Shown piece after piece: positions 3,236 through 42,219 of a stretch of DNA of 46,852 nucleotides. The translations under genes were made by a program, and so were the position numbers. Where the stretch lies: positions 1 through 46,852 of the forward strand of contig CAVOEM010000002.1 of NCBI GenBank assembly GCA_963694575.1, given 5' to 3'. A model generated the notes under the pieces. The model ran no database searches. It was not told the origin of the DNA and saw only the letters and a list, made by a program, of their open reading frames with translations. Origin of the DNA: Planctomycetes bacterium UBA1146. Lineage in GTDB: Bacteria; Planctomycetota; UBA8108; UBA1146. How positions within the stretch are numbered: position 1 is the stretch's first letter; every line of letters starts with the position of its first letter.

Positions 3236-3284
3236 CGTATCCCCTCTCGAAACTTCAAATGACTGATCGATCTGGTGGTCGATT

Positions 3285-4064: not shown

Positions 4065-4075
4065 CGGTTATCCGT

Positions 4076-5179: not shown

Positions 5180-5405
5180 TGCTCCTCCAATAGGGTCGGG
5201 GAAAACCCCCCCAGGGGTGCCCGATCCTGCTCCTGGCTTACCATGTCTCCGCTGCTTTTGACAACCGATCGTCCGCAGATCCAAGACGGGCCGCCTTTCC
5301 CTACGGGTCGTCGTCGGGAGAAATGCGTTCTTGTGAGCCTGCAGTGGGCGTGTTGTCATCGGAGGGCTTGATGGCCAGGGCAAAGTGGAGAGGACCGGTA
5401 GGGAA

Positions 5406-6857: not shown

Positions 6858-6860
6858 GCG

Positions 6861-7820: not shown

Positions 7821-7851
7821 CCGAAGGGTCCAGGCCCGAGCCATCGATGGC

Positions 7852-9891: not shown

Positions 9892-10069
9892 CGTAGTCCT
9901 ACCTTTCCCAGAGCCCCTGGGGATGGCGTCACACAGAATGGAGCCATCTCATCTTTCAATTAAAGTTATCTACCGGGGGCCAAGCAACAAAATTATCGGA
10001 GAGACTCAGGAGGGAAGGCTGGACGGGTAATTTTCCCGAAATTCGTGCCTGAAGCGAAGTGGCGAGGAT

Positions 10070-12097: not shown

Positions 12098-12208
12098 CGA
12101 ACGCCCTCAATCGGATCCGCTGCAGAACGAGCCCGATCTGCAGTGCTTACTCAATTAATATGCTCAAGGAGAGGGAGGGCTACTTAAATCTTGGAGGGAA
12201 GATCCTAA

Positions 12209-17419: not shown

Positions 17420-17446
17420 TCGAACCCGTGCCCGAAAGGGGCCAAA

Positions 17447-27384: not shown

Positions 27385-28083
27385 GTGAAAGAGATGGTTG
27401 ATTCTTCCAGTGAAGGAATGACCCAGCAACGCTGGGAGCGGACCCATCAGTACATCGATCAACTCTTCTGTGATGATACAGAGCGATGGGATCGAGAGCA
27501 TGAAGCTTCAATGGAAGCGGGACTTCCAGCGATTTCGGTCGGTGCGGGAGTCGGACGGTGGCTCTCCTTGCTTGCATCGTTGTCGAGATCTGGTGGAGCG
27601 AATCTGATTGTGGAAGTGGGGACTCTCGGAGGTGCGAGCGCACTCGCACTGGCGCAGGGCCTCGGTGCAGATGGTCGAATCGTGACCATCGAAGCCTCGG
27701 ATGAGCATGCCGATTTTGCCCGGAAATCGATCGAGCGCGCAGGAGAATCGAGGATCGATGTGCGTCTCGGTGAAGGATTGGAACTGCTGCCTCGACTGGT
27801 CGAAGAACTCGGTGTGGGAAGTTGTGACCTGTTATTTCTGGATGCGATCAAAACCGAGTACCCGGGATACCTGGAGGCGGGAATGCCTCTGATGAGAAGC
27901 GGTGGCCTGGTCGTTGCTGACAACGTACTGGGAGCTGGAGAAGGATGGATTCCGGATGCCATCGATGGCGAGCCGAGCCGGGTCGCCATCGACCGGTTCA
28001 ACCGGATGGTCTCGGCAGATCCCAGGCTACAGGGGACCATCCTGCCGATGCGTCAGGGTCTACTGGTGGCACGGGTTCTCTAG
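27385..28083 (+). CDS. Class I SAM-dependent O-methyltransferase (caffeoyl-CoA OMT / Methyltransf_3-like)
   Basis: IVEVGTLGGASALALAQGL..DGRIVTIE (SAM motif I), DLLFLDAIKTEY and GGLVVADNVL fit the family. The start is GTG 27385 or ATG 27394. The stop lies 2 nt before the next gene. Confidence 0.8.
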   Translation: MKEMVDSSSEGMTQQRWERTHQYIDQLFCDDTERWDREHEASMEAGLPAISVGAGVGRWLSLLASLSRSGGANLIVEVGTLGGASALALAQGLGADGRIVTIEASDEHADFARKSIERAGESRIDVRLGEGLELLPRLVEELGVGSCDLLFLDAIKTEYPGYLEAGMPLMRSGGLVVADNVLGAGEGWIPDAIDGEPSRVAIDRFNRMVSADPRLQGTILPMRQGLLVARVL

Positions 28084-28085
28084 CG

Positions 28086-29033
28086 ATGGCAATCTCTCCG
28101 ATTCATTACATCGACACTCACACGGCAGGGGAACCGACCCGTGTGATCACAGGTGGTTTTCCTGATCTTGGATCAGGCAGTATGGTCGACCAGAGAGATG
28201 TGTTGCTTCGAGATCATGACTCGCTTCGAGCGGGAATCGTCCGCGAGCCACGAGGACACGAGGCGATGGTCGCAGCACTACTGCTCGAGAGTTCCCTGCC
28301 GGACTGCAATGCGGGAGTGATCTTCTTCAACAATGTCGGTGCTCTCGCAATGTGTGGCCATGGAGCGATGGGGGTTGTCGAAGCTCTCCGGCACATGGGG
28401 CGCATCGAGCCGGGGGATTGCCAGCTCGAAACTCCAGCGGGAGTTGTGGGTTTAAAGCTGCGAGAAGATGGCGAGATTTCCCTGCAAAATGTGGTCAGTC
28501 ATCGTGCTTCTGCAGATTGCACGGTGACTCTCGGCGACGGGAACTCGGTGACCGGAGATATTGCCTGGGGCGGAAACTGGTTTTTCATCGCAGAGACCCC
28601 TGGCATCGAGGTGGATTCGAAACATGTCTCTGCATTGACTGAAGCCGCCAGTCGAATTCGAGACGCACTAGATGGTGCAGGAATCCGTGGATCCAACGGT
28701 GAGCGAATCGATCATATCGAATTGCATCAGTCATTGCCGGCGGGGCAGGGCCAAGGGACTCGATCGTTCGTTCTTTGCCCTGGTCGAGAATGGGATCGTT
28801 CACCGTGCGGGACCGGCACCAGTGCCACGATGGCGTGCGAGTATCAGAAAGGGACGCTGAAGGAGGGGGATCTGTGGCACCAGATCGGGGTGCTAGGGAC
28901 TCGCTTTGTCGGATCCTTCGTGGTGGCGGACGAGGGGATCGTACCGACGATTCGCGGGCAGGCCTCCTTGTGTGGAGAGGGAACACTTTACTTCCCTTCG
29001 GATGATCCCTTTCGGCATGGCATCGACCTGTAA
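28086..29033 (+). CDS. Proline racemase-family enzyme, probable 4-hydroxyproline 2-epimerase
   Basis: ORF 27945..29033, with the start set at ATG 28086 (MAISPIHYIDTHTAGEPTRVI), giving 315 aa. Both catalytic Cys motifs are present (ALAMCGHGAMG and DRSPCGTGTSA), so it is an epimerase/racemase rather than a dehydratase. Neighbouring genes favour hydroxyproline as substrate. Confidence 0.85.
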   Translation: MAISPIHYIDTHTAGEPTRVITGGFPDLGSGSMVDQRDVLLRDHDSLRAGIVREPRGHEAMVAALLLESSLPDCNAGVIFFNNVGALAMCGHGAMGVVEALRHMGRIEPGDCQLETPAGVVGLKLREDGEISLQNVVSHRASADCTVTLGDGNSVTGDIAWGGNWFFIAETPGIEVDSKHVSALTEAASRIRDALDGAGIRGSNGERIDHIELHQSLPAGQGQGTRSFVLCPGREWDRSPCGTGTSATMACEYQKGTLKEGDLWHQIGVLGTRFVGSFVVADEGIVPTIRGQASLCGEGTLYFPSDDPFRHGIDL

Positions 29034-29066: not shown

Positions 29067-30155
29067 GTGCGCATCACCATAGACGCCACTGCTGCATGCA
29101 CTCCCCGACCCACAGGGATCGGGAGATATACCGCCCAACTGGCGCGTGCGCTGGACCAGATTGGATCGACGATTTCACTTGGAACTCGTTGTTCTCACCT
29201 GCACCGCCATCGACATCGATTAAAAATCCCCACGATCCGCAGCTTCTGGATCCAGGAACCGTGGTGGCCAGCGCTGACTCGACCCGATGTGGTCCATGTG
29301 ACCGATTCGAGAGTTCCACGCTGGAGATCCCCAAGAGTGGCGACGCTGCATGACGTGGTGCATCTGCTTCCTCAGAAGAAGAGAGACTTCCACTACTCGA
29401 CGAGGGAATTTCGGGACAAGAAGATCGCTGCCTACCAGTCGTTGGCGAGTGAATGTCATCGCATCATCGCTGTTAGTGAAACGACGCGACGCGATTTCCT
29501 GGAAGGTGTCGATTGTGACCCGAGCAAGGTTGTCGTGGTTCATCATGGCCTCGATCCCTTGTTCCAGCCGATCCCGCCCGATGAAGCTGCGCGCATTCTC
29601 GCTACTCGAAACATTCCCTATGGGGCAGTCATTTACGTTGGGGATCTCTCGAACCGAAAAAACATCCCCGGAATGATCGAGGGGTTCCTTGCGGCAGATC
29701 TGGGGGAGATCCCGATGGTGATCGCCGGTGAGCCGTCATTTGGTGGCGATGAAATTCTCGGTTTGATCGAGCGAAAAGGAAAGGGTCGAATCCATCTGAT
29801 CGGATGGCATGGTGACGATGTATTGCCCGCCCTCTACTCTTCGGCTCGGGCACTGCTGTACCCCACTCACTACGAGGGATTTGGAATGCCAGTGCTGGAA
29901 GCGATGGCCTGTGGTACGCCGGTGGTGGTTTCCAATACCGGTGCAGCACCCGAGATCGCGGGGGAACAGGCTCAGGTCTGTGATCCCGATGATCCTATAT
30001 CGATCTCCCGGGCACTCCAGAGGGCGTTGGGTCACGACCAAAGAAGACAGGATCTGGCCCGGAAGCATGCAACGACTTTTGATTGGAAAACCTGTGCCCG
30101 AGAAACGACCGTTGTTTATCGGCAGGCGATCGAAGCGGCTGGCGGTGCCCGCTGA
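29067..30155 (+). CDS. Family-4-like (GT-B) glycosyltransferase
   Basis: GTG start with GGAGG 5 nt upstream. The family signature is YPTHYEGFGMPVLEAMACGTPVVVSNTGAAPEI (E-x7-E region), with N-terminal IGRYTAQLARAL. Its stop TGA overlaps the next ATG (TGATG). Confidence 0.85.
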   Translation: MRITIDATAACTPRPTGIGRYTAQLARALDQIGSTISLGTRCSHLHRHRHRLKIPTIRSFWIQEPWWPALTRPDVVHVTDSRVPRWRSPRVATLHDVVHLLPQKKRDFHYSTREFRDKKIAAYQSLASECHRIIAVSETTRRDFLEGVDCDPSKVVVVHHGLDPLFQPIPPDEAARILATRNIPYGAVIYVGDLSNRKNIPGMIEGFLAADLGEIPMVIAGEPSFGGDEILGLIERKGKGRIHLIGWHGDDVLPALYSSARALLYPTHYEGFGMPVLEAMACGTPVVVSNTGAAPEIAGEQAQVCDPDDPISISRALQRALGHDQRRQDLARKHATTFDWKTCARETTVVYRQAIEAAGGAR

Positions 30156-31285
30156 TGGCAAATTTCAAGGTTGTGATCGTCGGTGCAGGAGTGGTCGGCG
30201 CCTGCTGTGCTCGAACACTGGCTCGCTGCGGGGCCGAAGTGCTGGTGGTGGACCAGGGTGAGGCGGTGGGAGTTCGAGGGGGAACCGCTGCGGGAATGGG
30301 ACACATCGTCATCAATGATGGGGATGAAGCCGGATTGCAACTTTGCAAGCTGGGAAGATCGATCTGGCGAGACGATTGCCCAGAAATCGCTGGAGCGGAC
30401 GGTTTCATCGAAACCGGTACCCTCTGGATGGCTGAAGATGATGTCGCATTCGAAGGACTCGCAGACTCTGCAAAGAGACTCGAGTCAGAAGGCATTCATG
30501 CCGAGTTACTCGAAGGAAAATCCTTCCACGATGCGGAGCCAGCACTGGCGAGGGATCTGGTCGGCGGTCTTCGATTGCCGGAGGATGGGGTGTTGTACGC
30601 TCCTGTGGTTGCCGCAGCGATGATGGATCAGGCAAAGCAGATGGGAGCGAGCTTTCGTCCACGGGTGAGGGTTTCTTCTGTGGAGTCGGGAGTGGTTCGC
30701 CTCGACGATGGGAACACCATCGGAGCCGATGCCATCGTGATCGCCTCAGGATTGAATGCGCTCGACCTACTCGATGAATCGGGGATCACCGTGCCGATCG
30801 TCCCTCGTGAAGGACAACTCGCCATCACTGCCCGAGGAACCCAGGTTCTCACTCACCATGTCGTCGAGGCGGGATACCAGAAGGGGGCTCACGGTGTCGT
30901 GGAAGAAGCAGTGGCCTGCGCCATCCTGCCCAGATCTACCGGCCAGCTGTGTATCGGGTCGAGTCGCCGTCCCCGGCATGGCGGAGCGGTCGACCGGGAG
31001 CTGATGGAGCGAATTGTCGCCCGAAGTGATCGATTCCTGCCAGGGATCTCGAGGTTGCCAATTGTTCGCTGCTGGAGTGGAACTCGGGCGGCGACCGCAG
31101 ATTCGAGACCGCTGATCGGCCCGGTGCCCGCTCAGCCAGGGGTCTGGATCGCTGCAGGCTTCGAGGGCCTGGGGATCACCCAGGCTCCTGCGGCGGCCCA
31201 GTTGATCGCGCACTCGATGCAGGGAACCACCAGCCCCATCGATCCCCGAGCCTGGGATCCGGCTCGAGTCATGACCACTTCTTGA
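30155..31285 (+). CDS. DAO-family FAD-dependent oxidoreductase, probable D-hydroxyproline dehydrogenase (beta-type subunit) or opine-oxidase-like subunit
   Basis: ORF 30083..31285, with the start set at ATG 30155 (MANFKVVIVGAGVVGACCARTLARCGAEVLVVDQ, a GxGxxG dinucleotide fold). 376 aa, with C-terminal AAGFEGLGITQAPA typical of DAO enzymes. Confidence 0.8.
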   Translation: MANFKVVIVGAGVVGACCARTLARCGAEVLVVDQGEAVGVRGGTAAGMGHIVINDGDEAGLQLCKLGRSIWRDDCPEIAGADGFIETGTLWMAEDDVAFEGLADSAKRLESEGIHAELLEGKSFHDAEPALARDLVGGLRLPEDGVLYAPVVAAAMMDQAKQMGASFRPRVRVSSVESGVVRLDDGNTIGADAIVIASGLNALDLLDESGITVPIVPREGQLAITARGTQVLTHHVVEAGYQKGAHGVVEEAVACAILPRSTGQLCIGSSRRPRHGGAVDRELMERIVARSDRFLPGISRLPIVRCWSGTRAATADSRPLIGPVPAQPGVWIAAGFEGLGITQAPAAAQLIAHSMQGTTSPIDPRAWDPARVMTTS

Positions 31286-31380
31286 TCCTGGCAGAGCAAA
31301 GGGCACGATGCAGCCGTTGAGCCAGGGATCCAGAGGATCAGGCCGCAGGTGAATCGAATTCATTTCAGGGAGGAACAGTC

Positions 31381-32790
31381 TTGCAGATCACGGTGACTGA
31401 GATCGAACTGGAACTGAAGGAGTGCCATACGCGCATCCCATTTCGTTTCGGTGTGCATACACTCACCGAGGCCCCGATGGCGGTGGCTACTCTTCATGCA
31501 GAAACATCCGATGGTACTCCGATGGTCGGCTACACATCGGAGTTACTGGTACCTCGCTGGTTCGAGAAGAACCTCGAGCGATCGGTCGAAGCTGATATCG
31601 AATCGCTGGTCGAGAGTATTCAGATCGCCGGGCAGATTCTAATCGATGGAACCAAGGCCTCGGTATTTGATCATTACTGGAGAACCCTGGAAGACCGGGT
31701 CCTGTCGGTTCCCGTCTCGGCAGCCGATCGACTGACTCGAGGATTCGGGTGCGCGATCTGGGAACGAGCGATGATGGACGCAGCCTGTAGAGGTGTCGGG
31801 GTACCGTTCATCGATGCTCTCGAGTGTGATCTGTTCAAGATCCAGCCCGATCGCTTTCACTCATCCATTCCAGCAGGTTGGAAGTTTCATCCTGCACCTC
31901 CGCCTTCGACGATTGCGGTCCGTCACACGGTCGGTTTGCTCGATGATCTGGAGGAGGCGTCTGAGGGAGCTCCCGAAGATGGCCTGCCGGTGACCCTGGT
32001 CGAGGATATCCATCGTCACGGCCTCGCCTGGTTCAAGGTGAAGGTCGGCGGAGATCCGCAGCAGGATCTGGAGCGACTGGGTCAAGTGGCTCGGATTCTC
32101 GAGCGTGAAGCTTCCCCCGGTTACCGGGTGACCCTCGATGGGAACGAGCAGTATGCCGATCCCTCGCAACTGGCACAGGTGCTGGAGCAGTTGTCAGCGA
32201 AGCGGTCTGGCTCCACCTTCATCGATGCGATGGTCAGCATCGAACAACCGGTGCCACGTTCCTTGACCTTTGATGAGAGCGCCAGCCCCGGCGAACTGAC
32301 AAAGTTCGCCCCCGTCATCATCGACGAGGCGGACCATGGTCCGGAGGCCTTTCCCGAGGCGTTACGCATCGGCTATCGAGGGGTCTCTGCCAAGAACTGC
32401 AAGGGCGTATCGCGCTCCATTGCGCATCAGGGCCTGTGCGACCATCACGAAGGCGGCGCCTTCATCAGTGGCGAGGATCTGACCAATCTGCCACCGTGGG
32501 GGTTGCATCAGGATTTGTTGACGGCGGCGGCACTGGGATTGCACCATGTCGAGCGAAACGGTCACCATTACTTCAGAGGTCTCGATCATCTTCCTCCAGC
32601 GGAAGTGGCTTCGCTGGTAAATGATCATCCAGATCTCTATCGAGCACTCGGCGATGGAGCCGAACTCCACATCGAAGACGGTAACCTCTCGATTCGATCT
32701 CTCGATTGCGATGGCTACGGCTGCACCATCGAACCTGCGAGCGATCAGCGTCGCTCGGTACTCTCCCGAAGAGCGAAAGAACAGGGATGA
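31381..32790 (+). CDS. Divergent, unusually long (469 aa) enolase-superfamily-like protein, function unknown
   Basis: TTG start with GGGAGG 8 nt upstream. The capping-domain pattern is ECHTRIPFRFGVHTLTEAPMAVATLHAETSDGTPMVGYTSE. Barrel motifs occur in canonical order: WFKVKVGGD (KxK), RVTLDGNEQY, VSIEQPV, VIIDEAD and GVSAKNCKG. Assignment is by motif order only. Confidence 0.6.
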   Translation: MQITVTEIELELKECHTRIPFRFGVHTLTEAPMAVATLHAETSDGTPMVGYTSELLVPRWFEKNLERSVEADIESLVESIQIAGQILIDGTKASVFDHYWRTLEDRVLSVPVSAADRLTRGFGCAIWERAMMDAACRGVGVPFIDALECDLFKIQPDRFHSSIPAGWKFHPAPPPSTIAVRHTVGLLDDLEEASEGAPEDGLPVTLVEDIHRHGLAWFKVKVGGDPQQDLERLGQVARILEREASPGYRVTLDGNEQYADPSQLAQVLEQLSAKRSGSTFIDAMVSIEQPVPRSLTFDESASPGELTKFAPVIIDEADHGPEAFPEALRIGYRGVSAKNCKGVSRSIAHQGLCDHHEGGAFISGEDLTNLPPWGLHQDLLTAAALGLHHVERNGHHYFRGLDHLPPAEVASLVNDHPDLYRALGDGAELHIEDGNLSIRSLDCDGYGCTIEPASDQRRSVLSRRAKEQG

Positions 32791-34247
32791 AGATTCGATC
32801 TCCGAACAAGTTCAAGGATACAGACTCCTTTCGTGCTCGATGGAAGGAGATCGATGGCCGGCTGGACCTCGATGATGAGGTGGAATCTCCCGGACCACTC
32901 GGATCCGCACTGGAGAAGGGGGGCTGGTCCCTCTCCAACCGATTTGCCGTCCATCCGATGGAGGGTTGGGACGCCCATGCCGATGGATCTCCTTCCGAAG
33001 AGACGCTCCGGCGCTGGCGCCGCTTTGGAGAGAGTGGCGCTGCCCTGATCTGGGGTGGTGAAGCGTTTGCGGTGGTGGAGGATGGTCGGGCCAACCCGAA
33101 CCAACTGTTCCATCGCGATTCGGACCGAAGTTGCCGGACACTGGAGTCGCTGCGACAGGCGATCACGGCCGGCCATGATGCGATCGGAAACGAAGCACCC
33201 ACTGCTTCAGTGGTAGGTTTGCAACTGACTCACTCCGGACGCTGGTCGCGCCCGACCGTGGCGGGTCCTTCGCCAAGGATCGCCTTTCAGCATCCGATTC
33301 TCGATGAGCGAGTTTCCGCCACTGCCGAACAGTTGCTCGACGATGGTGAACTGGAATCGATCGCTGAGAGGTATGTCGAGGCTGCGGTCTGTGCGCAGAA
33401 GGCGGGTTTCGATTTCGTCGATATCAAGGCGTGTCACGGTTACCTGTTGCACGAGTTACTGTCGGCGAGAACGCGCCCTGGTCGATACGGTGGAGATCTG
33501 GAGGGTCGTAGTCGTCTGTTGAGAGAGGTGATTGCAGCAGTCCGCAGCGCCGCACCGGGGCTGGGGGTCGCGGTACGCCTGTCGGTGACCGATGTGATTC
33601 CCTTCAAGAAATCGCAACAGGGTGAGGGTGAACCGGACTGGCCCGAGGGCGAGCCTTACCCGCATGGCTTTGGCCTCGATCCTGCAGATCCGCAGAACCC
33701 CAGCTGGACCGAGCCGATGCAATTGATCACCTTGCTGCAGGAGGTGGGCATCGAATGGCTCAACTTGACCATCGGTTCGCCCTACTGGTGTCCTCACCGT
33801 CAGAGACCGGCACAGTATCCTCCCAGTGACGGATATCCGCCGCCGGAAGATCCGCTGGTGGGAGTTGCCGCACATCTTCAGGCGGCCAGAGCGGTCCGAC
33901 AGTCATTTCCCCAGCTCGGTCTGGTCGGCACCGGCTGGACCTATTTGCAGGAGTGGTTGCCGGCGGTGGCGCAGCATGAGATCCGTAACGGATTCCAGGA
34001 TGTGGTCGGCCTCGGCAGATCGATGCTCTCCTATCCCGAGTTACCGAGGGACATCATCCATGGCCGAACGATGCCGAAGAAACTGGTGTGCCGGACCTTC
34101 AGTGACTGCACCACAGCACCGAGAAACGGATTGATCAGCGGGTGCTTTCCACTCGATGAGCATTACAAATCGCACCCGGCCGCAGCGGAACTGAAGTCCG
34201 TCAAGGCGAGTGCCCGGCAGATCGCCAGAGAAGGGGAGAACCATTGA
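32787..34247 (+). CDS. Old-yellow-enzyme-like FMN oxidoreductase (NADH:flavin oxidoreductase family)
   Basis: ORF 32706..34247, with the start set at ATG 32787 (MKIRSPNKF), which overlaps the previous stop as ATGA. Motifs are FAVHPMEGW, GAALIWGGEAFAV, VGLQLTHSGRW, FDFVDIKACHGYLLHELLSARTRPGRYGGDLEGRSRLLREVI and VRLSV. The C-terminus has CRTFSDCTTAPRNGLISGC. Confidence 0.8.
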   Translation: MKIRSPNKFKDTDSFRARWKEIDGRLDLDDEVESPGPLGSALEKGGWSLSNRFAVHPMEGWDAHADGSPSEETLRRWRRFGESGAALIWGGEAFAVVEDGRANPNQLFHRDSDRSCRTLESLRQAITAGHDAIGNEAPTASVVGLQLTHSGRWSRPTVAGPSPRIAFQHPILDERVSATAEQLLDDGELESIAERYVEAAVCAQKAGFDFVDIKACHGYLLHELLSARTRPGRYGGDLEGRSRLLREVIAAVRSAAPGLGVAVRLSVTDVIPFKKSQQGEGEPDWPEGEPYPHGFGLDPADPQNPSWTEPMQLITLLQEVGIEWLNLTIGSPYWCPHRQRPAQYPPSDGYPPPEDPLVGVAAHLQAARAVRQSFPQLGLVGTGWTYLQEWLPAVAQHEIRNGFQDVVGLGRSMLSYPELPRDIIHGRTMPKKLVCRTFSDCTTAPRNGLISGCFPLDEHYKSHPAAAELKSVKASARQIAREGENH

Positions 34248-35677
34248 GTGAACCCGAAGCCGATTCCAAGAATTCCATCGACCTTCCGATGGTGGCTCCA
34301 CCCGATCCGGTTGCTCTGGCCGAGGAAAAGAAGTGGCTCACTTCGCTAGAATCTGCACCCATCACGAAGCGCTGGGCCGCGTTTCTCAAGCGAGGCGGAC
34401 CGGGCTATCTGCAGAGTTCACTGACCCTCGGTGGTGGCACCGCAGCCGCAACTCTGATGGCAGGGGGTGCGTTCGGCTATCAACTGTTGTGGGTGGCGCC
34501 ACTCTCGATGCTACTGGGAGTCGCGGTGCTGTCGGCGGTCGCACACCAGACCCTTTCGACGGGAAAGCGGCCACTGCCGGCGATCCGAGAGCACGCCGGG
34601 CCTTTCTTCGCCTTCGCCTTCATCGCCGGAGCGGTGCTGTCGAGTGTCATCTGGCATTTCGCCCAGTACGCCCTCGCCTCGGCAGCGATCGAGGATATCG
34701 GTGCCGTCAGTGGAACGGGAATCTCGCGCTGGATGGGGGGATTGCTAGTACTGGCGTGGGCCATCAGCTGGTCCTTCACCTATGGCCGTTCACCGGCGTT
34801 GTTGAAACTGTTCGAGCGTAGCATGCAGGTGATGGTGTGGTTGATCGTGCTCTGTTTCGCCGCCGTCGTGGTCAAGACGGGGATCAGTGATCCCGGAGCC
34901 TTCCTGTCCGGTTTCATTCCCGGTGGCGTCGGCGAAGTCTATACGCCTGGAGGGGATGAGGCGAAGTCGATCGGTGCTCTCAGCATCGTGGTGGCGGGAT
35001 TGGCCGCGGCCATCGGTGCCAACATGGTTTTTCTCTATCCGTACTCGTTGCTGGCGAGAGGCTGGGGCAAGGAGCACCGATCACTGGCGAGGTTCGATCT
35101 GTTCGCGGGCATGTTCGTTCCTTATCTGTTGACGACGACCCTCATCGTGGTGGCGGCCGCGAGCACCTTCGGTGCCGATGGGATCCCCTTTCCCGGCAAG
35201 GGTTTTGCGCCCGTCGATGCCGCAAAGATCCTCGGCGGCACCTTCGGCACCAGCACCTCACGAATTCTGTTCGACCTGGGGTTACTGGGAATGGTCACCA
35301 GCAGCATCACGATGCACATGGTCTGCTGCGGCTTCGCAGCCTGTGAAACATTGGGCTGGAAGGTCGGATCGGCGAAGTTTCGTCTCGCCTGTCTGTTGCC
35401 GACCCCTGGAGTGCTGGGTGCCTTCTTCTGGGGTGACATCAAGATCTGGATCGCGGTCCCGACCACCATCCTGACCGGTTTCCTGCTGCCTGCGGTCTAC
35501 ATCGGAATCCTCAAGATGCAGCGCTCCAGGGCGTACCTCGGTGCAGATCTACCGCAGGGCAGGAAGGCGATGCTGTGGCAGGGATTGATCTTGCTGGCGA
35601 CGCTGGTGCTGAGTGTCTTCCTGATCTGGATTACCGTCACCGCGATACCTGGATGGTGGAGGACTCTCACCGGATGA
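34244..35677 (+). CDS. Nramp-fold (MntH-related) membrane transporter lacking the canonical metal-binding residues
   Basis: The TTG start overlaps the previous stop (TTGA), with GGGGAG upstream. [33 protein letters not shown] aligns with E. coli MntH [33 protein letters not shown] (recalled from memory). About 11 hydrophobic segments. ATG at codon 16 is an alternative start. Confidence 0.75.
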   Translation: [477 protein letters not shown]

Positions 35678-36852
35678 GAATCGAACTGCCAAATCCTGAT
35701 GGAGACCCGATCTGGCTCGAAGATGGATTGCTCTCCAGTGAGCCGGAGCCGGTTGCGGCAGTGCCGGTCAGGGTCGCCTATGCTGCGGCTCACATCATCT
35801 TGAAGGATGACGCCAGCCATCGATCGAGCAGTGCAGATGCCATCGAGATGGTGGACTGGGACCAGACGACGGCGTTTCGCCAACACCTGGCCTCGCATGG
35901 ATTTGGCATCGCAGAAGCGATGGACACCGCACAGCGATTTGAACTGGGTTGGCCCGCCGCACGAAGATTGATCGAGCAGTGCGGGGAACTCGATCTCGAT
36001 ACAGGCTTCATCGCCGGAGCCGGGGCAGACCAGTGCAACGAGGTGTCGGATCCCACGACGTTGATCGATGCCGTGGTCGAGCAAGTTCATATCATTCAGC
36101 AGGCCGGTGGCATTGCGATCATCTTGCCGATGCCTTGGCTCTGTCGCTGGGGGTGTGACGAGCAGCAGTATGTCTCGATCTACCGCTCCATCATCGAGCA
36201 GAGTGAGGGACCAGTACTCCTCCACTGGCTCGGCCCGATGTTCATGGCAGAACTGGCGGGCTACTTCCCTGGTGACAGCCTCGATCGGATCCTCAGCATC
36301 GATGTCGACAAGGTGCGAGGGGTCAAGATGTCGATGCTGGATCACGACCTGGAGATCGAGGTGCGCCAGCGTTGTCGTGAACGGGGGCAGATCGTGCTGA
36401 CCGGGGACGACCATCACTTCTGCGATCTCATCGCAGGGGATGGCAAGATCCCATCCCAGAGCATCGCCATCGGAGCTCGTCAGGTTCCCGATGGAGATTT
36501 TAGCCATGCCCTGCTGGGAGTACTGGATGGTGTCGCGGTTCCTGCCGGACGAGCACTGAGACATCTGGCGGCAGGAGATCTCGCTGGATATCGCCGTTGG
36601 ATGCAGCCATGTGAAGACTACGGCCAGCGAGTCTTTGAAGCACCGACCCACCTCTACAAGGCGGGCCTCGCCTTCACCGCCTGGCTCAATGGTCATCAGC
36701 ACCAACCGATGTTGCTCCATCGTATCGACCTCGAGCGCGATCTCGATCATCTGCTAGATGTGGCCCGTCTGGCCTCACGGGCCGGAGCGATCGCCGATGC
36801 CGGAATGGCGGCGGAGCGCATCGAACTCATGATGGCGGGCGTGCATCGATGA
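35674..36852 (+). CDS. DUF993-like protein (predicted aldolase/DapA-like TIM barrel), function unknown
   Basis: ORF 35575..36852, with the start set at ATG 35674 (MRIELPNPDG), which overlaps the transporter stop as ATGA. Blocks RVAYAAAHIILKDD, VDWDQTTAFRQHLASHGFGIAEAMDTAQR, LLHWLGPMF..LAGYF, SHALLGVLDG and YKAGLAFTAWLNGHQ match my recollection of the DUF993 family. Confidence 0.6.
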   Translation: MRIELPNPDGDPIWLEDGLLSSEPEPVAAVPVRVAYAAAHIILKDDASHRSSSADAIEMVDWDQTTAFRQHLASHGFGIAEAMDTAQRFELGWPAARRLIEQCGELDLDTGFIAGAGADQCNEVSDPTTLIDAVVEQVHIIQQAGGIAIILPMPWLCRWGCDEQQYVSIYRSIIEQSEGPVLLHWLGPMFMAELAGYFPGDSLDRILSIDVDKVRGVKMSMLDHDLEIEVRQRCRERGQIVLTGDDHHFCDLIAGDGKIPSQSIAIGARQVPDGDFSHALLGVLDGVAVPAGRALRHLAAGDLAGYRRWMQPCEDYGQRVFEAPTHLYKAGLAFTAWLNGHQHQPMLLHRIDLERDLDHLLDVARLASRAGAIADAGMAAERIELMMAGVHR

Positions 36853-38387
36853 GCGGCGATCGTAAGGTGAAGATTCGCCTCGATGGTGTGTGGGTCGAGG
36901 TGAAGGAAGGTGCCCAGCTCGCTGCCGCCTTGCTCGATCTGGGAGTCGTGTCGCTGAGAAGATCTCCGACAGGCGAGCGACGTGGAGCACTGTGTGCGAT
37001 GGGGAGTTGTCACGAGTGTCGTGCAGTGGTCGACGGGCACCGGGGTGTGAGAAGCTGCTTGATCCGGGTTCGAGATCGGATGCAGGTGGAAACGGAACGC
37101 GACCTGGATCGATCTCCACTGGCACCTCTGGAGATCTCAGCGGCGAAACGAGATGTAGCAGATCTGGTCGTCGTCGGTGCCGGCCCGGCAGGGTTGGCTT
37201 CAGCGATTGCTGCGGCAGAACTGGGGCTAGACGTCCTGGTGGTCGACGAATCTCCGGGTCCGGGTGGGAGGATCTGGGCTCACCACGATCGGATCCCAGC
37301 GGCGGCTCGCAACTGGATCGAGCGAGCCGAACGAGCCGGAGTTCGCAGGCTTCATGGCTACAGCATCATCGATGGAGAGCCGGGGAGGCTACAGGCGAGT
37401 TCGGTCGCCAGTGGAGAGTCGATCGAGATCGAGTGCGACACGATCGTCATCGCCACCGGAGCCAGAGAACGGTTCCTGCCATATCCTGGCTGGACCCTTC
37501 CAGGAGTGGTCGGAGCCGGAGCACTGCAATCGCTCATCAAGGGTGGATTGGATGTGAAGGGCAAGCGACTGGTGGTGGCTGGAACCGGGCCATTGCTCCT
37601 GGCGGTGGCCCAACTGGCTCGGCAGCAGCAAGCTTCGGTGCTGCTCGTCGAGCAAGCTTCCATCTTCAATCGGATTCCACTGCTTCTTGGAGTGCTGCAA
37701 TCGAAAACTCGTATTCGACAGTCGGTGGCGTTGTGGAAATCATTGCGAGATGTCGAGAAGTTGTCTTGCTCCTGGCCGGTCAAGGCAGAGGGGGATCAGC
37801 GAGTCGAGCGAGTGCATCTTCGCACCGAGAAGGGGATTCGCATCGAAGAGGTAGATGGACTGGCGGTTGGATTTGGACTGGTGCCGGAGACTCGGGTCGC
37901 GGAGGGACTCGGGTGCCGCATCCTCGATGATGGTTGCGTTGCCGTGGATCACCATCAGTGGACTGGAGTCGAGGGAGTATATTGCGCTGGAGAGCCGACC
38001 GGAATCGCCGGCTGCGATGCGGCCATCGATAGCGGCCTGGTGGCGGGGATCAGTGCAGCAGGTCGGACTCCACGGGCGTACCTGCAGACACGCGTGCGGC
38101 GCCACCGGGCGTGGGGGGCGGCGCTCGAAGCGGCGCATTCCCTGCGACCGGAACTGTTCCACCAGGGGCGTGGTGAGGTGCTGCTCTGTCGATGTGAGGA
38201 TGTGACCGCCGAGACAGCCGATCGAGCCAGTTCCATCCGGGAGGCGAGGTTATTGTGCCGCATCGGCATGGGACCTTGTCAGGGTAGGGTCTGCATGCCG
38301 ATCCTGGAGGCACTAGGGGCGGATCGAGCCGATTCGGTGCGCCCGCCGTGGTCGACCAGCCCGGGGAAAGGTCAGATCTCGCGGTGA
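36849..38387 (+). CDS. Fused HcnA-like [2Fe-2S] domain + HcnB-like FAD/NAD(P) oxidoreductase with BFD-like [2Fe-2S] domain (putative gamma-alpha fusion of a heteromeric D-hydroxyproline/opine dehydrogenase)
   Basis: ATGA overlap with the upstream gene. The N-terminus is IRLDGVWVEVKEGAQLAAALL..GALCAMGSCHECRAVVDGHRGVRSC. The FAD fold is DLVVVGAGPAGLASAIAAAELGLDVLVVDE, with a second Rossmann KRLVVAGTGPLLLAVA, then VYCAGEPTGIAG. The BFD-like domain is LLCRCEDVT..CRIGMGPCQGRVC. Confidence 0.8.
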   Translation: MSGDRKVKIRLDGVWVEVKEGAQLAAALLDLGVVSLRRSPTGERRGALCAMGSCHECRAVVDGHRGVRSCLIRVRDRMQVETERDLDRSPLAPLEISAAKRDVADLVVVGAGPAGLASAIAAAELGLDVLVVDESPGPGGRIWAHHDRIPAAARNWIERAERAGVRRLHGYSIIDGEPGRLQASSVASGESIEIECDTIVIATGARERFLPYPGWTLPGVVGAGALQSLIKGGLDVKGKRLVVAGTGPLLLAVAQLARQQQASVLLVEQASIFNRIPLLLGVLQSKTRIRQSVALWKSLRDVEKLSCSWPVKAEGDQRVERVHLRTEKGIRIEEVDGLAVGFGLVPETRVAEGLGCRILDDGCVAVDHHQWTGVEGVYCAGEPTGIAGCDAAIDSGLVAGISAAGRTPRAYLQTRVRRHRAWGAALEAAHSLRPELFHQGRGEVLLCRCEDVTAETADRASSIREARLLCRIGMGPCQGRVCMPILEALGADRADSVRPPWSTSPGKGQISR

Positions 38388-38453: not shown

Positions 38454-39350
38454 TTGGACCGTGGTTCCATCTTCATCATCATCGCTCTCGCCTCTTTGGC
38501 TGTCGCCATCTCCGGCCTCGTGTCCACCGATGAGTTCACAGGAAATGCTGCAGTGGAGTCTTTGGTTGCCAAATCAGGGAGTGGGGTCGTCTCGCTGGCT
38601 CCTTGCATCACAGGAACCTTGCAGTCGATCGGTGCCGAATCAGCCATTTCCATGATCAGTGATTACTGTCCGCAAATCGTTGGAGTGGCGCGGGGAGGGA
38701 CGGCACTGGCTCCCGATCTGGAAAGAATTGTTCGGAGCGGTTCCCGAATCTTGCTGGTCAGAAGTGCCGCAGGACTGCCAAGGGATGAACTGGAAAGAGT
38801 CGGAGAGACGATCGAGTTGCCCTGGTCATCGGTGGCGCAAGTGGTTGCCAGCATCCGTGCCATCGGTGTCGTTGTGCATCGTGAATCTTCAGCGAACCAA
38901 CTTGCGGATCGATTCGAGAAACTATTGGCGGATCCAGTCGTGGCTGAGGATGCACCGCGAGTGCTACTGGTGATTGGAACCGACCTCGATGCCTCAGGAG
39001 GACCCTGGGTCATCAAACCCAACTCGATTCACGGTGCGGTACTGAAAGCCGCAGGATTTCGAAATGCCATCGAGCAGGCGATGAGCGGCACGCCGCAGAT
39101 CTCCTACGAGCGACTTCTGGCGATCGATCCTGACATCATTCTCCACCTGAATGGTGGACGAGGGGCCACTGCCGATCAGTCACTGCTCGATCATTATCGA
39201 AAGCTCTCCGGATTGAAGGCTGTGACCGGCGGTGCGGTGGGGGAAGTCTCCGGGCCGAGGATTCTCGATGAAGGACCTGAACTTCTCGACCTGGTGCAGG
39301 CGATTCGAGCAGAGGTGACTCGATTGGCGGCCGGGGGGGCACAGTGGTAG
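38454..39350 (+). CDS. Periplasmic substrate-binding protein of a type-II ABC importer (BtuF/FhuD/Peripla_BP_2-like)
   Basis: TTG start with GGAG 8 nt upstream. The N-terminal anchor is IFIIIALASLAVAISGL. VVSLAPCITGTLQSIGAESAISMISDYCPQI resembles the BtuF N-lobe signature. LAIDPDIILH is typical of the C-lobe. Confidence 0.75.
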   Translation: MDRGSIFIIIALASLAVAISGLVSTDEFTGNAAVESLVAKSGSGVVSLAPCITGTLQSIGAESAISMISDYCPQIVGVARGGTALAPDLERIVRSGSRILLVRSAAGLPRDELERVGETIELPWSSVAQVVASIRAIGVVVHRESSANQLADRFEKLLADPVVAEDAPRVLLVIGTDLDASGGPWVIKPNSIHGAVLKAAGFRNAIEQAMSGTPQISYERLLAIDPDIILHLNGGRGATADQSLLDHYRKLSGLKAVTGGAVGEVSGPRILDEGPELLDLVQAIRAEVTRLAAGGAQW

Positions 39351-40123
39351 CCCTGTTAGAACTGGAGCAGGCCACGGTCCTGGCGGGCGATATTCCGATC
39401 CTCGATCAACTGTCCCTGGAGGTGAGCGAAGGGGAGATGGTAGCGATCATCGGCCCCAACGGCTCGGGAAAGAGCACCCTGATCAAGGCACTGCTCGGGC
39501 TGGCGCCACTCGATCAAGGCACTGCTCGGATCGAAGGGCGACCACTGACGACTCTCACGGCGAGACAGCGAGCCGCATCGATGGCGTGGCTTCCCCAGGA
39601 CGGTCTTTCTGCGGAAAGATTGCGAGTTGAGGATGTGGTCGCTGCGGCCCGCTTTCGCTTCAACGAAACGCGCCAAGACTGCCTCGCTGCCGCGTATCGA
39701 GCACTCGAGGATGCGGGTGCAGATTCGCTCGCGGATCGCTGGATCAACGAACTCTCCGGCGGTGAACGACAGCGCATCGAACTGGCTTCGATGGTCGCAC
39801 AGGAATCGAAGTGCTGGCTGCTCGATGAACCGGCCAATCATCTGGATCCGGTGTGGCGTGCGCGGACGTTGAAATTCTTGTCGAGGCGTCTTGCGCAGGG
39901 CAATACCGTGCTGGTGGTGCTCCATGATGTCCATCTGCTGGGACACATCGAGGCTGCCCAGACCAGGGTGGTGGGTCTTCGCCAGGGCAAGATCGCATGG
40001 CAAGGAAGACTGTCAGATCAAGATCTCGGTAAAGGACTGGAAACGGTTCATGGCATCCCCTTCGAGCGCGCCGTTGCTGGGAACCGGGAGTACTGGATCC
40101 CTGGTGAGGAGCCACTCGAATGA
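39344..40123 (+). CDS. ABC transporter ATP-binding protein (FepC/BtuD-like)
   Basis: Walker A GPNGSGKST, signature LSGGERQR, Walker B CWLLDEP and H-loop VLHD. The GTG start overlaps the binding-protein stop by 7 nt. Confidence 0.9.
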   Translation: MVALLELEQATVLAGDIPILDQLSLEVSEGEMVAIIGPNGSGKSTLIKALLGLAPLDQGTARIEGRPLTTLTARQRAASMAWLPQDGLSAERLRVEDVVAAARFRFNETRQDCLAAAYRALEDAGADSLADRWINELSGGERQRIELASMVAQESKCWLLDEPANHLDPVWRARTLKFLSRRLAQGNTVLVVLHDVHLLGHIEAAQTRVVGLRQGKIAWQGRLSDQDLGKGLETVHGIPFERAVAGNREYWIPGEEPLE

Positions 40124-41082
40124 AGGCTCTGATACGCTGGCTTCCCTGGGTCGTGCTGGCGACCACCATCGCGGTGGCGACCGCATGGATCGGTCCCACT
40201 CTCGATGATCAGCACGGGCAGTGGATCCTGCACGAATTGCGACTCCCTCGTGCTCTCGCGGGTGCGATGGTCGGAGCGGTTCTGTCTGCAGCAGGAGCGG
40301 TGGTGCAGATCCTGCTACGCAATCCGCTGGCGACGCCAAGTACCATCGGAACCACCGCAGGAGCGACCCTCGGAGTGCTGGCAGCACTGGTGCTCGGAAG
40401 TGGAAGTACCTGGATGGGACTGCCGATTCTCCCCGCTGCGGCCTTCGCCGGAGCCTTGCTGGTGACGCTGGTCATCGCTTCGGTAGCGGCACGAGATCGT
40501 GCTCGCACTGAGGATGTATTGCTGGCAGGCATCGCCTTGACGCTGGCGACAGGCGCGATTGCGTCGGGATTACGACTGGGTATCGATCAGGTGACTTCCC
40601 TCAGCGCTCTGCGCTGGTCACTCGGCAGCCTGACCATCATCGGACCCGATCGAATTTCGATGCTGGCTCCCTTCGTGGTGATCTCGCTGGCGGGAATGTT
40701 GTGGTTGATCCGGCCCCTCGAGGTACTGATCTCCGGTATCGAGAGAGCGCGGACACGCGGGGTCGAGGTGACTCGGGTGAGGACCCTCGGGCTCGGGCTC
40801 GCATCGCTCGGAGTGGCGGCCTGCGTGGCGACCTGTGGTCCCATTGCATTTGTCGGGTTGATCTGTCCTCACCTGGTGAAGCGAATTGTGGGCTCTGCCC
40901 CGAGAACCTTGCTACCGGCCTCGATCTTGCTCGGGGCGGTGTTCTTGCCACTGTGTGATTCGATCGGCAGAGTCATCTGGGAACAACGCGAGATTCCTGT
41001 CGGGGTCATCACTGCGGCGCTGGGTGCCCCGGTGCTGTTCATGATCGTGGTTCGTCGGGGTCGAGCTCACTCGAGACGGTGA
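40120..41082 (+). CDS. ABC transporter permease, FecCD/BtuC family
   Basis: ATGA overlap with the ATPase gene. LRLPRALAGAMVGAVLSAAGAVVQILLRNPLATPSTIGTTAGATLG is the family signature. Multiple TM segments. The C-terminus is PVGVITAALGAPVLFMIV. Confidence 0.9.
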   Translation: MKALIRWLPWVVLATTIAVATAWIGPTLDDQHGQWILHELRLPRALAGAMVGAVLSAAGAVVQILLRNPLATPSTIGTTAGATLGVLAALVLGSGSTWMGLPILPAAAFAGALLVTLVIASVAARDRARTEDVLLAGIALTLATGAIASGLRLGIDQVTSLSALRWSLGSLTIIGPDRISMLAPFVVISLAGMLWLIRPLEVLISGIERARTRGVEVTRVRTLGLGLASLGVAACVATCGPIAFVGLICPHLVKRIVGSAPRTLLPASILLGAVFLPLCDSIGRVIWEQREIPVGVITAALGAPVLFMIVVRRGRAHSRR

Positions 41083-41268: not shown

Positions 41269-42219
41269 ATGAGTATTGAGTCGAATCGATCGATGACATG
41301 GGCAGGGGTGATGCCTGCCATCACCACACCGTTCGATGAATCGGGGCAGGTGGATTTCGCATTCCTTTCGAAACACTGTCGCTGGATGGTCGATCAAGGT
41401 GTGACCGGAATCGTCCCCTGCGGGTCCCTCGGAGAGGGCGCGACGCTCTCTTTTGAGGAGAAGGAGCGCGTCATCGATACGGTGGTTCGTGCCGCCGATG
41501 ATCGGGTGCCGGTGGTACCAGGAATCGCTGCTGCTTCGACCCAGGAGGCGGGCCGCCTGGCTGCCAGTGCCAGCGTGATGGGTGCCAGCGGATTGATGGT
41601 CTTACCACCCTACATCCACAGGGGACCATTTTTTGAGGTCGAAGCTCATATCGAGGCGGTGATCGGTGCGACCGATTTACCCTGCATGCTCTACAACAAT
41701 CCCATCGCCTATGGAGTCGATTTTGCACCGGGTTGGATTGCCGGTCTCGCAGAGCGGGCTCCCAACCTCAAGGCGGTGAAGGATTCCAGTGGTGATTCGA
41801 GGCGGATCACCGCAGTCCATTCGCTGGTCGGAGATCGACTGGCGCTGTTTGCCGGGCTCGATGACATGGTGGTGGAAGCGGTCAGGCAGGGAGCCGTGGG
41901 CTGGGTTGCCGGGCTGGTCAATGCATTGCCGATGGAGTCGGTGGTGCTGTTCGACAAGGCGGTAGCGGGAATCGATGATCCTGTCGCCGCTCGCGAAGCC
42001 GATCGCATCTACCGCTGGTTCTTGCCACTCCTGCGACTCGATTGCATTCCTGAGTTTGTCCAGTTGATCAAGTTGGTGCAGCAGGAAGTGGGAATGGGAA
42101 CTGACACGGTTCGAGCCCCCCGCTTCCCGGCGATGGGTGCTCTTCGAGAGGGTGCCCTGGACGTGATCCAGTCATCTCTGGCGACCAATCCGTTCGCGGA
42201 TGTGAAGGAGAAGCGATGA
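41269..42219 (+). CDS. DapA/DHDPS-family enzyme, probable Delta1-pyrroline-4-hydroxy-2-carboxylate deaminase
   Basis: WAGVMPAITTPFDE, GIVPCGSLGEGATLS, LPCMLYNNPIAYG, the Schiff-base Lys context LKAVKDSSGD, LFAGLDD and IYRWFLPLLRLD..FVQLIKL resemble my recollection of the Pseudomonas LhpC-type deaminase. The ATGA overlap with the KGSA-dehydrogenase-type ALDH supports the assignment. Confidence 0.8.
   Translation: MSIESNRSMTWAGVMPAITTPFDESGQVDFAFLSKHCRWMVDQGVTGIVPCGSLGEGATLSFEEKERVIDTVVRAADDRVPVVPGIAAASTQEAGRLAASASVMGASGLMVLPPYIHRGPFFEVEAHIEAVIGATDLPCMLYNNPIAYGVDFAPGWIAGLAERAPNLKAVKDSSGDSRRITAVHSLVGDRLALFAGLDDMVVEAVRQGAVGWVAGLVNALPMESVVLFDKAVAGIDDPVAAREADRIYRWFLPLLRLDCIPEFVQLIKLVQQEVGMGTDTVRAPRFPAMGALREGALDVIQSSLATNPFADVKEKR

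Follow-up and report, generated by a model that had tools for sequence, protein, structure and literature searches.

A recurrent enolase-like, OYE-like, Nramp-fold, and DUF993 cassette nested in a planctomycete hydroxyproline block: a candidate system for carboxylate uptake and breakdown

The window analyzed here is the whole 46,852-nucleotide stretch at positions 1 to 46,852 of contig CAVOEM010000002.1 of Planctomycetes bacterium UBA1146, and our subject is a quartet of plus-strand genes at 31381-36852 that lies within a block of hydroxyproline-type genes. The first gene (31381-32790, TTG start) codes for a divergent enolase-superfamily enzyme of 469 amino acids (aa) with a catalytic layout like that of the MLE subgroup, here called ENO; the second (32787-34247) codes for a 486-aa OYE-like FMN enzyme of an atypical subfamily (PF00724); the third (34244-35677) for a Nramp-fold permease, SLC11-like and of the LeuT fold, with 477 aa from a TTG start or 462 aa from an ATG at 34289; and the fourth (35674-36852) for a 392-aa DUF993 protein (PF06187) predicted to form a TIM barrel of the NAL/DHDPS type. 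These are the families given in a first-pass annotation of this DNA, and Pfam searches, together with AlphaFold2 models and Foldseek for ENO and the DUF993 protein, bear that description out. Each of the four proteins belongs to a known superfamily, and none to a characterized isofunctional family.

The genes of the quartet are joined by shared stop and start codons. Reading of the plus-strand junctions finds ATGA at 32787-32790 (ENO stop, OYE-like start), TTGA at 34244-34247 (OYE-like stop, Nramp-like start, with GGGGAG 5 nucleotides [nt] upstream), ATGA at 35674-35677 (Nramp-like stop, DUF993 start), and ATGA at 36849-36852, where the DUF993 stop overlaps the start of a Fer2_4/Pyr_redox_2 gene. 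All four overlaps had been reported in the first-pass annotation, and because of them we place the OYE-like start at 32787 and the DUF993 start at 35674. The alternative Nramp-like start at ATG 34289 is without a Shine-Dalgarno sequence, yet it equals the gene-caller start in a relative at 93% identity; the 4-nt overlap at the OYE-like/Nramp-like junction is also present in the loci of four other relatives (L001, L003, L097, and L098). Ahead of ENO, the Shine-Dalgarno sequence GGGAGGAA lies 6 nt before the TTG start, within the 95-nt plus-strand spacer (31286-31380) that separates the cassette from the upstream DAO-family gene. A promoter and terminator scan of 26.9-45.3 kb gave a site count below that of shuffled sequence, with no site at the cassette borders or in this spacer, and no Rfam family matched anywhere in the window at gathering scores, which therefore offers no riboswitch clue. 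The overlaps indicate co-transcription and possibly translational coupling, but not the "obligate" co-expression claimed earlier. Start/stop overlaps are not special to the quartet: within the co-directional block of 27.4-44.7 kb they occur at 9 of 14 junctions, among them GT4/DAO (30153-30155), periplasmic binding protein/ABC ATPase (39344), ABC ATPase/FecCD (40120), DapA/aldehyde dehydrogenase (42216), and aldehyde dehydrogenase/EamA (43793).

The quartet recurs widely. We sampled the 80 best species loci of ENO relatives, 47 of which had enough downstream sequence to judge, and the order ENO-OYE-Nramp-DUF993 is kept in 29 of these 47, mostly in Planctomycetota and at 40 to 50% identity; such recurrence makes the gene order more than chance. 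Gene calls in stand-alone quartets (L001, L003, L097, and L098) again give 1- to 4-nt overlaps or tiny gaps. The ENO family is large: at the level of 90%-identity clusters its homologues number more than 7,900 and come mostly from Planctomycetota, at 50% identity it forms 645 clusters (E ≤ 1e-30), and relatives are encoded in at least 593 species genomes. Outside the quartet, clustering of neighboring genes (chosen in high-GC loci by GC content at third codon positions, plus targeted tblastn) found no neighbor that recurs across the 80 loci and no consistently adjacent regulator or central-metabolism gene. Hydroxyproline-type neighbors accompany 2 of the 29 complete quartets, both in the window's own clade, and the remaining 27 are without them. 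These data support a quartet that is self-contained, inherited as a unit, and provided with its own transporter; it is very probably autonomous from the hydroxyproline genes. The first-pass annotation had looked to synteny in related genomes as the test of its self-contained, undescribed module; the synteny is strong, and our literature search found no paper on a combination of these genes (planctomycete Nramp plus mandelate racemase-type).

ENO itself matched no Pfam (E ≤ 0.01) or NCBIfam family and did not reach the gathering scores of MR_MLE_N or MR_MLE_C, and a precomputed PF13378 match is present in about half of its homologues. Its best sequence matches in PDB are at E 0.96 (phmmer) and E ≥ 9e-4 (profile search). 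The AlphaFold2 model (pLDDT 89.4, pTM 0.91) predicts the two-domain enolase-superfamily fold, an alpha+beta capping domain and a modified TIM barrel, and Foldseek aligns it at E 3e-16 to 1e-13 with structures of MR, MLE, dipeptide epimerase, and glucarate dehydratase. Target-normalized TM scores are 0.62 to 0.77 overall; for MR/MLE structures they are 0.70 to 0.77, at E about 1e-15 and 13 to 20% identity. As noted earlier for this protein, the motifs KVKVGG, LDGNEQY, IEQP, IDEAD, and SAKNCKG are present in this order, and its length exceeds that of MR/MLE enzymes by roughly 100 aa (469 aa versus about 360 aa for MR/MLE structures). Residues of catalytic type are invariant in 22 ENO homologues, namely K219, K221, D253, N255, E256, Q257, E288, Q289, P290, D315 to D318, K338, C340, K341, and G342. 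Mapped onto the predicted barrel, K219-V-K221 lies at the end of strand 2 (217-221); the candidate metal ligands D253, E288, and D315 lie at or just past strands 249-253, 284-288, and 312-314 (strands 3 to 5); K338-N-C-K341 lies just past strand 334-337 (strand 6); E365/D366 follow strand 7; and E391 and H395/H396 are at strand 8. ENO is thereby predicted to have the three-carboxylate metal-ligand layout of the enolase superfamily on strands 3 to 5, and its two-lysine layout is of the MLE-subgroup type; no His-Asp dyad was identified in it. Profile searches align KVKVGG and DxN with dipeptide epimerases, the K-x-K matching. The sole phmmer match in PDB is 4mgg of Labrenzia aggregata, at the insignificant E of 0.96, and a special similarity to this structure was rejected, its Foldseek scores being no better than those of other MR/MLE structures.

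The DUF993 protein scores 293 bits against PF06187 (cutoff, 24) over profile positions 21 to 377 of 382. A structure from the same family is available in PDB 4dnh (E 2.6e-49), which is SMc04132 of Sinorhizobium meliloti; no functional literature was found on DUF993 or on 4dnh/SMc04132. In Foldseek searches the AlphaFold2 model (pLDDT 94.3) matches 4dnh (TM score 0.84, 30% identity) and then NAL, DHDPS, KD(P)G aldolase, and KdgD structures at E about 1e-8 and target-normalized TM scores of about 0.75 to 0.84; 2r91, a KD(P)G aldolase, and 4ur7, a keto-deoxy-galactarate dehydratase, are among the structural neighbors. The protein is predicted from this model to have the TIM-barrel fold of the NAL/DHDPS class I aldolase superfamily, and at the sequence level there is no match to PF00701. 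The sixth predicted barrel strand bears an invariant lysine, K218 (numbered K219 in alignment A2), and this strand-6 lysine is kept in 4dnh. The Tyr and the carboxylate-binding G-x-x-G-E motif of the superfamily are unrecognizable, and invariant A-E-A-M-D-T-A-x-R and H-W-L-G stand at the corresponding strand ends. In three proteobacterial plasmid records the DUF993 gene adjoins a gene of the sugar-phosphate isomerase/epimerase family, unlike in the window's quartet; CoA-transferase genes are nearby, as is glycerate kinase in two of the three, and ENO, OYE-like, and Nramp-like genes are not among the DUF993 neighbors in these records.

The OYE-like protein matches PF00724 at 89.5 bits (cutoff, 27), aligned only over profile positions 11 to 231 of 342, and all of its NCBIfam matches are far under their cutoffs. 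Its C-terminal third is divergent or carries insertions, and PDB alignments place inserted segments in the second half of the barrel. The hallmark of OYE enzymes is H-x-x-H/N-x-Y, with a His/His or His/Asn substrate pair and a Tyr proton donor. That pair is not found here, where the motif reads K214-A-C-H217-G-Y219: a Lys replaces the first His and the second His and the Tyr are kept, as seen also in the PDB alignments ("DIKACHGYLL" against "ELHMAHGYLL"). Scored across 36 syntenic homologues, K214-x2-H217-x-Y219 is conserved, and so is a C-terminal C435-x5-C441-x11-C453. Members of the FadH/TMADH/enoate-reductase class carry a four-Cys 4Fe-4S motif past the barrel and C-terminal FAD/NAD(P) domains, whereas this protein has three conserved Cys and no C-terminal nucleotide-binding domain and ends at residue 486. 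The Fer2_4/Pyr_redox_2 protein encoded downstream was considered as the missing reductase domain and rejected, since the adjacency is confined to the window's clade.

The permease reaches 88.3 bits against PF01566 (cutoff, 29.8) over profile positions 2 to 351 of 357 and scores under the cutoffs of the NCBIfam Nramp models. Aligned with the solved Nramp 10ky, it has "LGGGTA" for "IDPGNW" and "IGANMV" for "VVMPHN", so that the DPGN of transmembrane segment 1 (TM1) is GGGT and the "A..MPH" of TM6 is "G..ANM"; the GGGT is kept in 29 syntenic Nramp-like homologues. The proposal that this is a Nramp fold without metal ligands is borne out by these replacements, and metal transport by the permease was rejected because the ligands are gone. 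A tblastn search of plasmids with the Nramp-like protein gave no match.

Within the window the quartet is flanked on both sides by genes resembling those for subunits of D-hydroxyproline dehydrogenase. Immediately upstream is a DAO-family FAD oxidoreductase gene (30155-31285; PF01266, 197 bits) like that for the beta subunit, and immediately downstream is the Fer2_4 plus Pyr_redox_2 gene identified by Pfam (36849-38387), like a fused gamma-alpha-subunit gene; both are on the plus strand and outside the cassette. Homologues of the downstream protein carry the JGI name "D-hydroxyproline dehydrogenase subunit alpha". Heteromeric D-hydroxyproline dehydrogenase has beta, gamma, and alpha subunits whose genes are normally in tandem (PMC4575208); in the window a single gene joins the gamma part (Fer2_4) to the alpha part.

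Comparison with relatives identifies the quartet as an indel at this site. Collinearity of the locus L093 (GCA_014239525.1) with the window extends from topA to clpB, and L093 has the same GT4, ABC importer, DHDPS, aldehyde dehydrogenase (ALDH), and EamA genes, but its DAO gene overlaps the Fer2_4/Pyr_redox_2 gene directly, the quartet is missing at that site, and blastn collinearity with the window is interrupted between 31207 and 37170. L094 likewise has GT4-DAO-Fer2_4/Pyr_redox_2, with the quartet missing. Both loci keep the order TopA-Fpg-(Icd)-ProRac-GT4-DAO-Fer2_4/Pyr_redox_2-ABC, followed in L093 by DHDPS-ALDH-EamA-ClpB, and in a distant cluster (L095) Aldedh-ProRac-DAO-Fer2_4/Pyr_redox_2-DHDPS are contiguous. 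Because DAO adjoins Fer2_4/Pyr_redox_2 in L093 and L094, the quartet is a 5.5-kb indel exactly between the dehydrogenase subunit genes, with its 5' boundary at the 95-nt spacer and its 3' boundary at the ATGA of 36849-36852, which is kept in L005 to L009. The window's clade with hydroxyproline-type neighbors includes L005 to L007 (93% ENO identity) and L008 and L009 (70 to 72%), and in the nearest outgroups, L097 (63%) and L098 (60%), the quartet is alone and in unrelated contexts. Since L093 and L094 diverge from the window more than L008 and L009 do, parsimony favors one insertion event in the ancestor of this clade. The hydroxyproline context of the quartet is thus probably a lineage-specific insertion, and nesting between subunit genes, even with a shared start/stop overlap, is no evidence of a common pathway.

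The host block (27.4-44.7 kb) is a single co-directional series of closely spaced genes on the plus strand by open reading frame analysis, and GC skew is positive across all of it, consistent with leading-strand genes. Assignments come from Pfam and NCBIfam searches. An O-methyltransferase gene (27385-28083) lies directly upstream of the epimerase gene (28083-29033), which codes for a proline-racemase-family protein (Pfam Pro_racemase, 283 bits) with MCGHG and SPCGTG motifs and therefore both catalytic Cys; among NCBIfam models it scores best with that for 4-hydroxyproline epimerase (349.6 bits, under the cutoff of 442). A GT4 glycosyltransferase gene (29067-30155) precedes the DAO gene. Beyond the Fer2_4/Pyr_redox_2 gene are a Fec-type ABC importer (Peripla_BP_2/ABC_tran/FecCD; 38454-41082), a DHDPS-family protein (41269-42219), a 526-aa aldehyde dehydrogenase (Aldedh; 42216-43796), and an EamA transporter (43793-44740). 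The route for trans-4-hydroxy-L-proline consists of an epimerase, D-hydroxyproline dehydrogenase, Pyr4H2C deaminase, and KGSA dehydrogenase (PMC4113996), and the flanking genes fit it, with epimerase, dehydrogenase subunits, DHDPS-family deaminase, and KGSA dehydrogenase types all present. An earlier statement that none of the quartet's families takes part in hydroxyproline routes does not hold for the DHDPS fold, which is that of Pyr4H2C deaminase (PMC4113996).

Relatives differ from the window in small ways elsewhere in the block. The O-methyltransferase gene is present in the window, L005, and L094 and missing from the otherwise collinear L093, a second small indel. The GT4 gene and the Fec-type ABC importer are odd members of a hydroxyproline cluster and are inside the block in every relative, including the quartet-less L093 and L094. 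In L093 (11521-13251) a single fused gene of 576 aa is called for the ABC ATPase and the FecCD permease, which the window has as two genes that overlap by an ATGA at 40120.

Homologues of ENO are also found in clusters of different composition. Two Phycisphaerales loci (L026 and L042) have the order ENO-Gfo/Idh/MocA-AP_endonuc_2-Nramp-DUF993, and in 17 mostly proteobacterial loci an AP_endonuc_2, Gfo/Idh/MocA, or NAD-epimerase-like gene is near ENO, within about 100 nt in 16 of them; 9 of the 17 also show a DUF993 or PF00701-type DHDPS protein on the contig. Annotated variant loci carry TTT or TRAP carboxylate transporters, and L059 has a DUF1537-type acid-sugar kinase and a HIBADH-type dehydrogenase. 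These "type B" clusters (AP_endonuc_2, ENO homologue, Gfo/Idh/MocA or NAD-epimerase, and DUF993 or DHDPS-like protein, with TTT, TRAP, or ABC transporters) are seen in Burkholderiales, Hyphomicrobiales, other Alphaproteobacteria, and Phycisphaerales. They resemble the quartet in the ENO family (37 to 45% identity) and the DHDPS-fold partner and, in Phycisphaerales, in having the same Nramp-like permease; they differ in transporter type and in having, instead of the OYE-like enzyme, an NAD-dependent oxidoreductase together with a xylose-isomerase-like TIM barrel. A "DHDPS family" neighbor in Nitratireductor was considered as a DUF993 protein and rejected (hhalign probability, 0.2%; PF00701, 38 bits), as it belongs to a different DHDPS-fold family.

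Two further contexts are of sugar type. On plasmid pRL10 of Rhizobium johnstonii 3841 (L088, 97-10380), an ENO homologue (37% identity) is the last gene of an operon in which it is preceded by a peptide-type ABC transporter, KduI/IolB, GH39, AP_endonuc_2, and a 2-hydroxyacid dehydrogenase; this strain is cultured and genetically tractable and could be an experimental entry to the ENO family. At full length, the OYE-like protein has a single plasmid-database match (37% identity, with 92% of the query covered), in Subdoligranulum variabile OY725857.1 (L096), within a Firmicute sugar cluster (1582-13153) that codes for a sugar-type ABC transporter, IlvD/Edd dehydratase, LacI, AP_endonuc_2, Zn-ADH, SDR, and FAD_binding_2 proteins. 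The OYE-like homologue lies between AP_endonuc_2 and Zn-ADH/SDR, and the LacI regulator and the IlvD/Edd dehydratase adjoin these.

Elsewhere in the window there is a second, canonical acid-sugar-looking cluster at 1739-7820. Its minus-strand genes code for an aldehyde dehydrogenase (1739-3310), an SDR (3285-4064), and, at 4076-5431, an enolase-superfamily protein that matches MR_MLE_N and MR_MLE_C normally. Divergent from these, on the plus strand, are genes for a Gfo/Idh/MocA protein (5385-6857) and for a xylose-isomerase-like TIM barrel (6861-7820). Positions 12209-18910 code for a 1736-aa protein with PSCyt1, WD40, PSCyt2 (DUF1549), and PSD1 (DUF1553) domains, followed by a DUF1501 protein; the pairing of a PSCyt/PSD1 giant protein with DUF1501 is typical of planctomycetes. 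The topoisomerase I gene (22314-25001, minus strand) ends in a long lysine-rich tail of KKTAKKK-type repeats.

We favor a carbohydrate-derived carboxylate over a proline derivative as the substrate of the quartet because three independent lines point that way, namely the variant clusters, the Rhizobium operon, and the sugar context of the OYE-like homologue. The enolase superfamily requires a carboxylate substrate, and we propose a carboxylate-based mechanism for this reason. From the autonomy, indel, folds, conserved residues, and gene contexts observed, we infer a substrate, an order of steps, and a chemistry in which the quartet takes up and breaks down a hydroxylated, sugar-acid-like carboxylate and functions independently of the hydroxyproline genes; we regard this reading as evenly poised between right and wrong. 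The Nramp-fold permease, its metal site lost, would import the organic carboxylate, most likely a hydroxylated, sugar-acid-like one. ENO would bind the carboxylate via Mg2+ held by D253, E288, and D315, and a lysine base (K219/K221 or K338) would take the alpha-proton, giving a 2-oxo or enol product by dehydration, cycloisomerization, or epimerization. The OYE-like flavoenzyme would oxidize or reduce an enone or ketone intermediate, and in variant clusters the equivalent chemistry may fall to an NAD enzyme of Gfo/Idh/MocA or epimerase type, together with a xylose-isomerase-like TIM barrel. Finally, K218 of the DUF993 protein would form a Schiff base with the 2-oxo acid, and retro-aldol cleavage or dehydration/decarboxylation would then yield central metabolites.

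Several observations weigh against this proposal. No characterized close homologue stands behind any step of the mechanism, the direction and substrate of the permease are proposals, and the putative Schiff-base role of K218 is argued solely from its position in the fold. The two-lysine layout of ENO is of the MLE-subgroup type, and that subgroup is known mainly for racemases, epimerases, and cycloisomerases; classical acid-sugar dehydratases usually use a His-Asp dyad. The proteobacterial contexts transfer only loosely, because ENO homologues at 38 to 40% identity may differ in function. The 3' ATGA coupling of the quartet to the dehydrogenase subunit gene is conserved in the window's clade, which makes co-expression with the hydroxyproline genes likely here. 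Moreover, in two proteobacterial metagenome-assembled genomes (L070, 8857-11407; L084, 8859-11419) an ENO homologue (38 to 39% identity) is divergent beside a proline-racemase-family gene. Close by in L070 are an M20 peptidase and a peptide-type ABC transporter, and in L084 a LeuC/LeuD-like pair of the aconitase family and a binding protein of Peripla_BP_6 type; these two loci have no DUF993, OYE, or Nramp-like genes.

One can also ask whether the cassette instead brings in a modified form of proline or hydroxyproline (betaine, N-substituted, or opine-like, or 3-hydroxyproline) and converts it for the enzymes of the flanking route, much as the first-pass annotation proposed, with ENO as an HpbD/LhpJ-like 2-epimerase or dehydratase, the OYE-like enzyme as amine oxidizing or imine reducing, and the DUF993 protein as deaminase-like. 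The nesting between hydroxyproline-dehydrogenase subunit genes, with ATGA into the downstream one, is kept at 70 to 93% ENO identity and speaks for this model, as do the proline-racemase-family neighbors in L070 and L084, the M20 peptidase and peptide-type ABC transporter close by in L070, the DHDPS fold of Pyr4H2C deaminase, the only phmmer match of ENO (the insignificant one to 4mgg), and the K-x-K / K layout that ENO has in common with LhpJ and hydroxyproline betaine 2-epimerase (PMC5144071). Set against these are the 27 of 29 complete quartets with no hydroxyproline-type neighbor, the stand-alone nearest outgroups, the relatives L093 and L094 that have the hydroxyproline block with no quartet in it, and the variant clusters with sugar-type enzymes and carboxylate transporters. 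The similarity of ENO to HpbD/LhpJ is also below the isofunctional level (13 to 20% identity, profile E ≥ 1e-3), and overlap with the hydroxyproline genes is weak evidence for a shared pathway because overlaps pervade the block. We consider a proline-derivative role unlikely, outweighed as it is by the synteny data, and the idea that the quartet feeds the flanking enzymes is unsupported on the same grounds. Both routes could nonetheless converge on 2-oxoglutarate semialdehyde, which the nearby aldehyde dehydrogenase would then take as its substrate.

Less probable again is a biosynthetic or salvage/repair cassette for a small carboxylated metabolite or cofactor precursor, in which the Nramp-fold protein would be an exporter or a salvage importer. 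The stand-alone character of the quartet, next to which neither a regulator nor a downstream central-metabolism gene is consistently placed in the 80 loci, would suit such a role, as would its very wide conservation within one phylum, which is often seen with housekeeping functions. However, the quartet is variably present among close relatives at this site, variant clusters have enzymes of catabolic type and uptake systems of high affinity (TTT, TRAP, and ABC binding proteins) in place of some of its parts, and the Rhizobium plasmid homologue adjoins a glycoside hydrolase. That the four genes are mere neighbors of unrelated function packed by genome streamlining, the Nramp-like protein being perhaps an ion transporter, takes its appeal from a packed, co-directional leading-strand block at 27-45 kb that mixes unrelated genes (GT4 and the Fec-type ABC transporter), but is hardly credible given the same four families in the same order with overlapping stops and starts in lineages only 40 to 50% identical and with unrelated flanks, and a permease without any metal ligand.

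If the quartet does act on a sugar-acid-like carboxylate, its parts may jointly define an undescribed Planctomycetota pathway, with a new enolase subgroup that has an enlarged capping domain, a DUF993 Schiff-base lyase or dehydratase, a carboxylate-transporting Nramp, and an atypical Lys-His-Tyr OYE-like enzyme in place of the proteobacterial pair of Gfo/Idh/MocA and xylose-isomerase-like proteins; this fuller picture is put forward tentatively, and we would sooner expect some part of it to be wrong than all of it to be right. It would give the first function for DUF993 and the first non-metal substrate in the Nramp/SLC11 family. Planctomycetota play a major part in degrading complex organic matter in the sea and in soils, and most of their conserved operons are without an assigned function. 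The quartet is a compact, recurrent, and tractable target for function discovery in this under-studied phylum, and because it links four uncharacterized subfamilies, one solved substrate would annotate thousands of genes.

Among known systems, the permease is closest to SLC11/Nramp proteins: it scores above the gathering score of PF01566, and its best solved relatives are Nramps and EleNRMT, a Mg2+ transporter of the same family (PDB 7qia; PMC8806188). It differs in that every metal-coordinating position is replaced (GGGT for DPGN and ANM for MPH), including the TM1 Asp that EleNRMT keeps, and in that its gene partners code for enzymes rather than for metal homeostasis. ENO shares with LhpJ and HpbD the catalytic lysines of MLE-subgroup type, and LhpJ is encoded inside an L-hydroxyproline gene cluster, as ENO is here. 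Unlike them, ENO has no significant sequence similarity to either and is about 100 aa longer, and its family is not generally linked to hydroxyproline, the link in the window being the lineage-specific insertion described above.

Another close parallel is with acid-sugar catabolism, in which D-glucarate and galactarate are processed via GudD or galactarolactone cycloisomerase, then KdgD and 2-oxoglutarate semialdehyde dehydrogenase, and other routes combine a dehydratase with a KDG-type aldolase. These routes resemble the quartet, as it is read here, in joining a Mg-dependent enolase-superfamily scaffold to a lysine-bearing barrel of the NAL/DHDPS fold and to dedicated carboxylate uptake, and the variant clusters carry TTT/TRAP carboxylate transporters along with acid-sugar enzymes. 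The quartet departs from them in that ENO and the DUF993 protein are outside the characterized isofunctional families (no Pfam match for ENO, no PF00701 match for DUF993) and in the two-lysine, MLE-type layout of ENO, which is not the His-Asp dyad typical of acid-sugar dehydratases; to our knowledge, an OYE-like flavoenzyme and a Nramp-fold permease take part in no described acid-sugar route. The logic of the cassette, with a transporter, an enolase-type enzyme, a redox enzyme, and a class I aldolase-fold enzyme, is that of the familiar acid-sugar operons.

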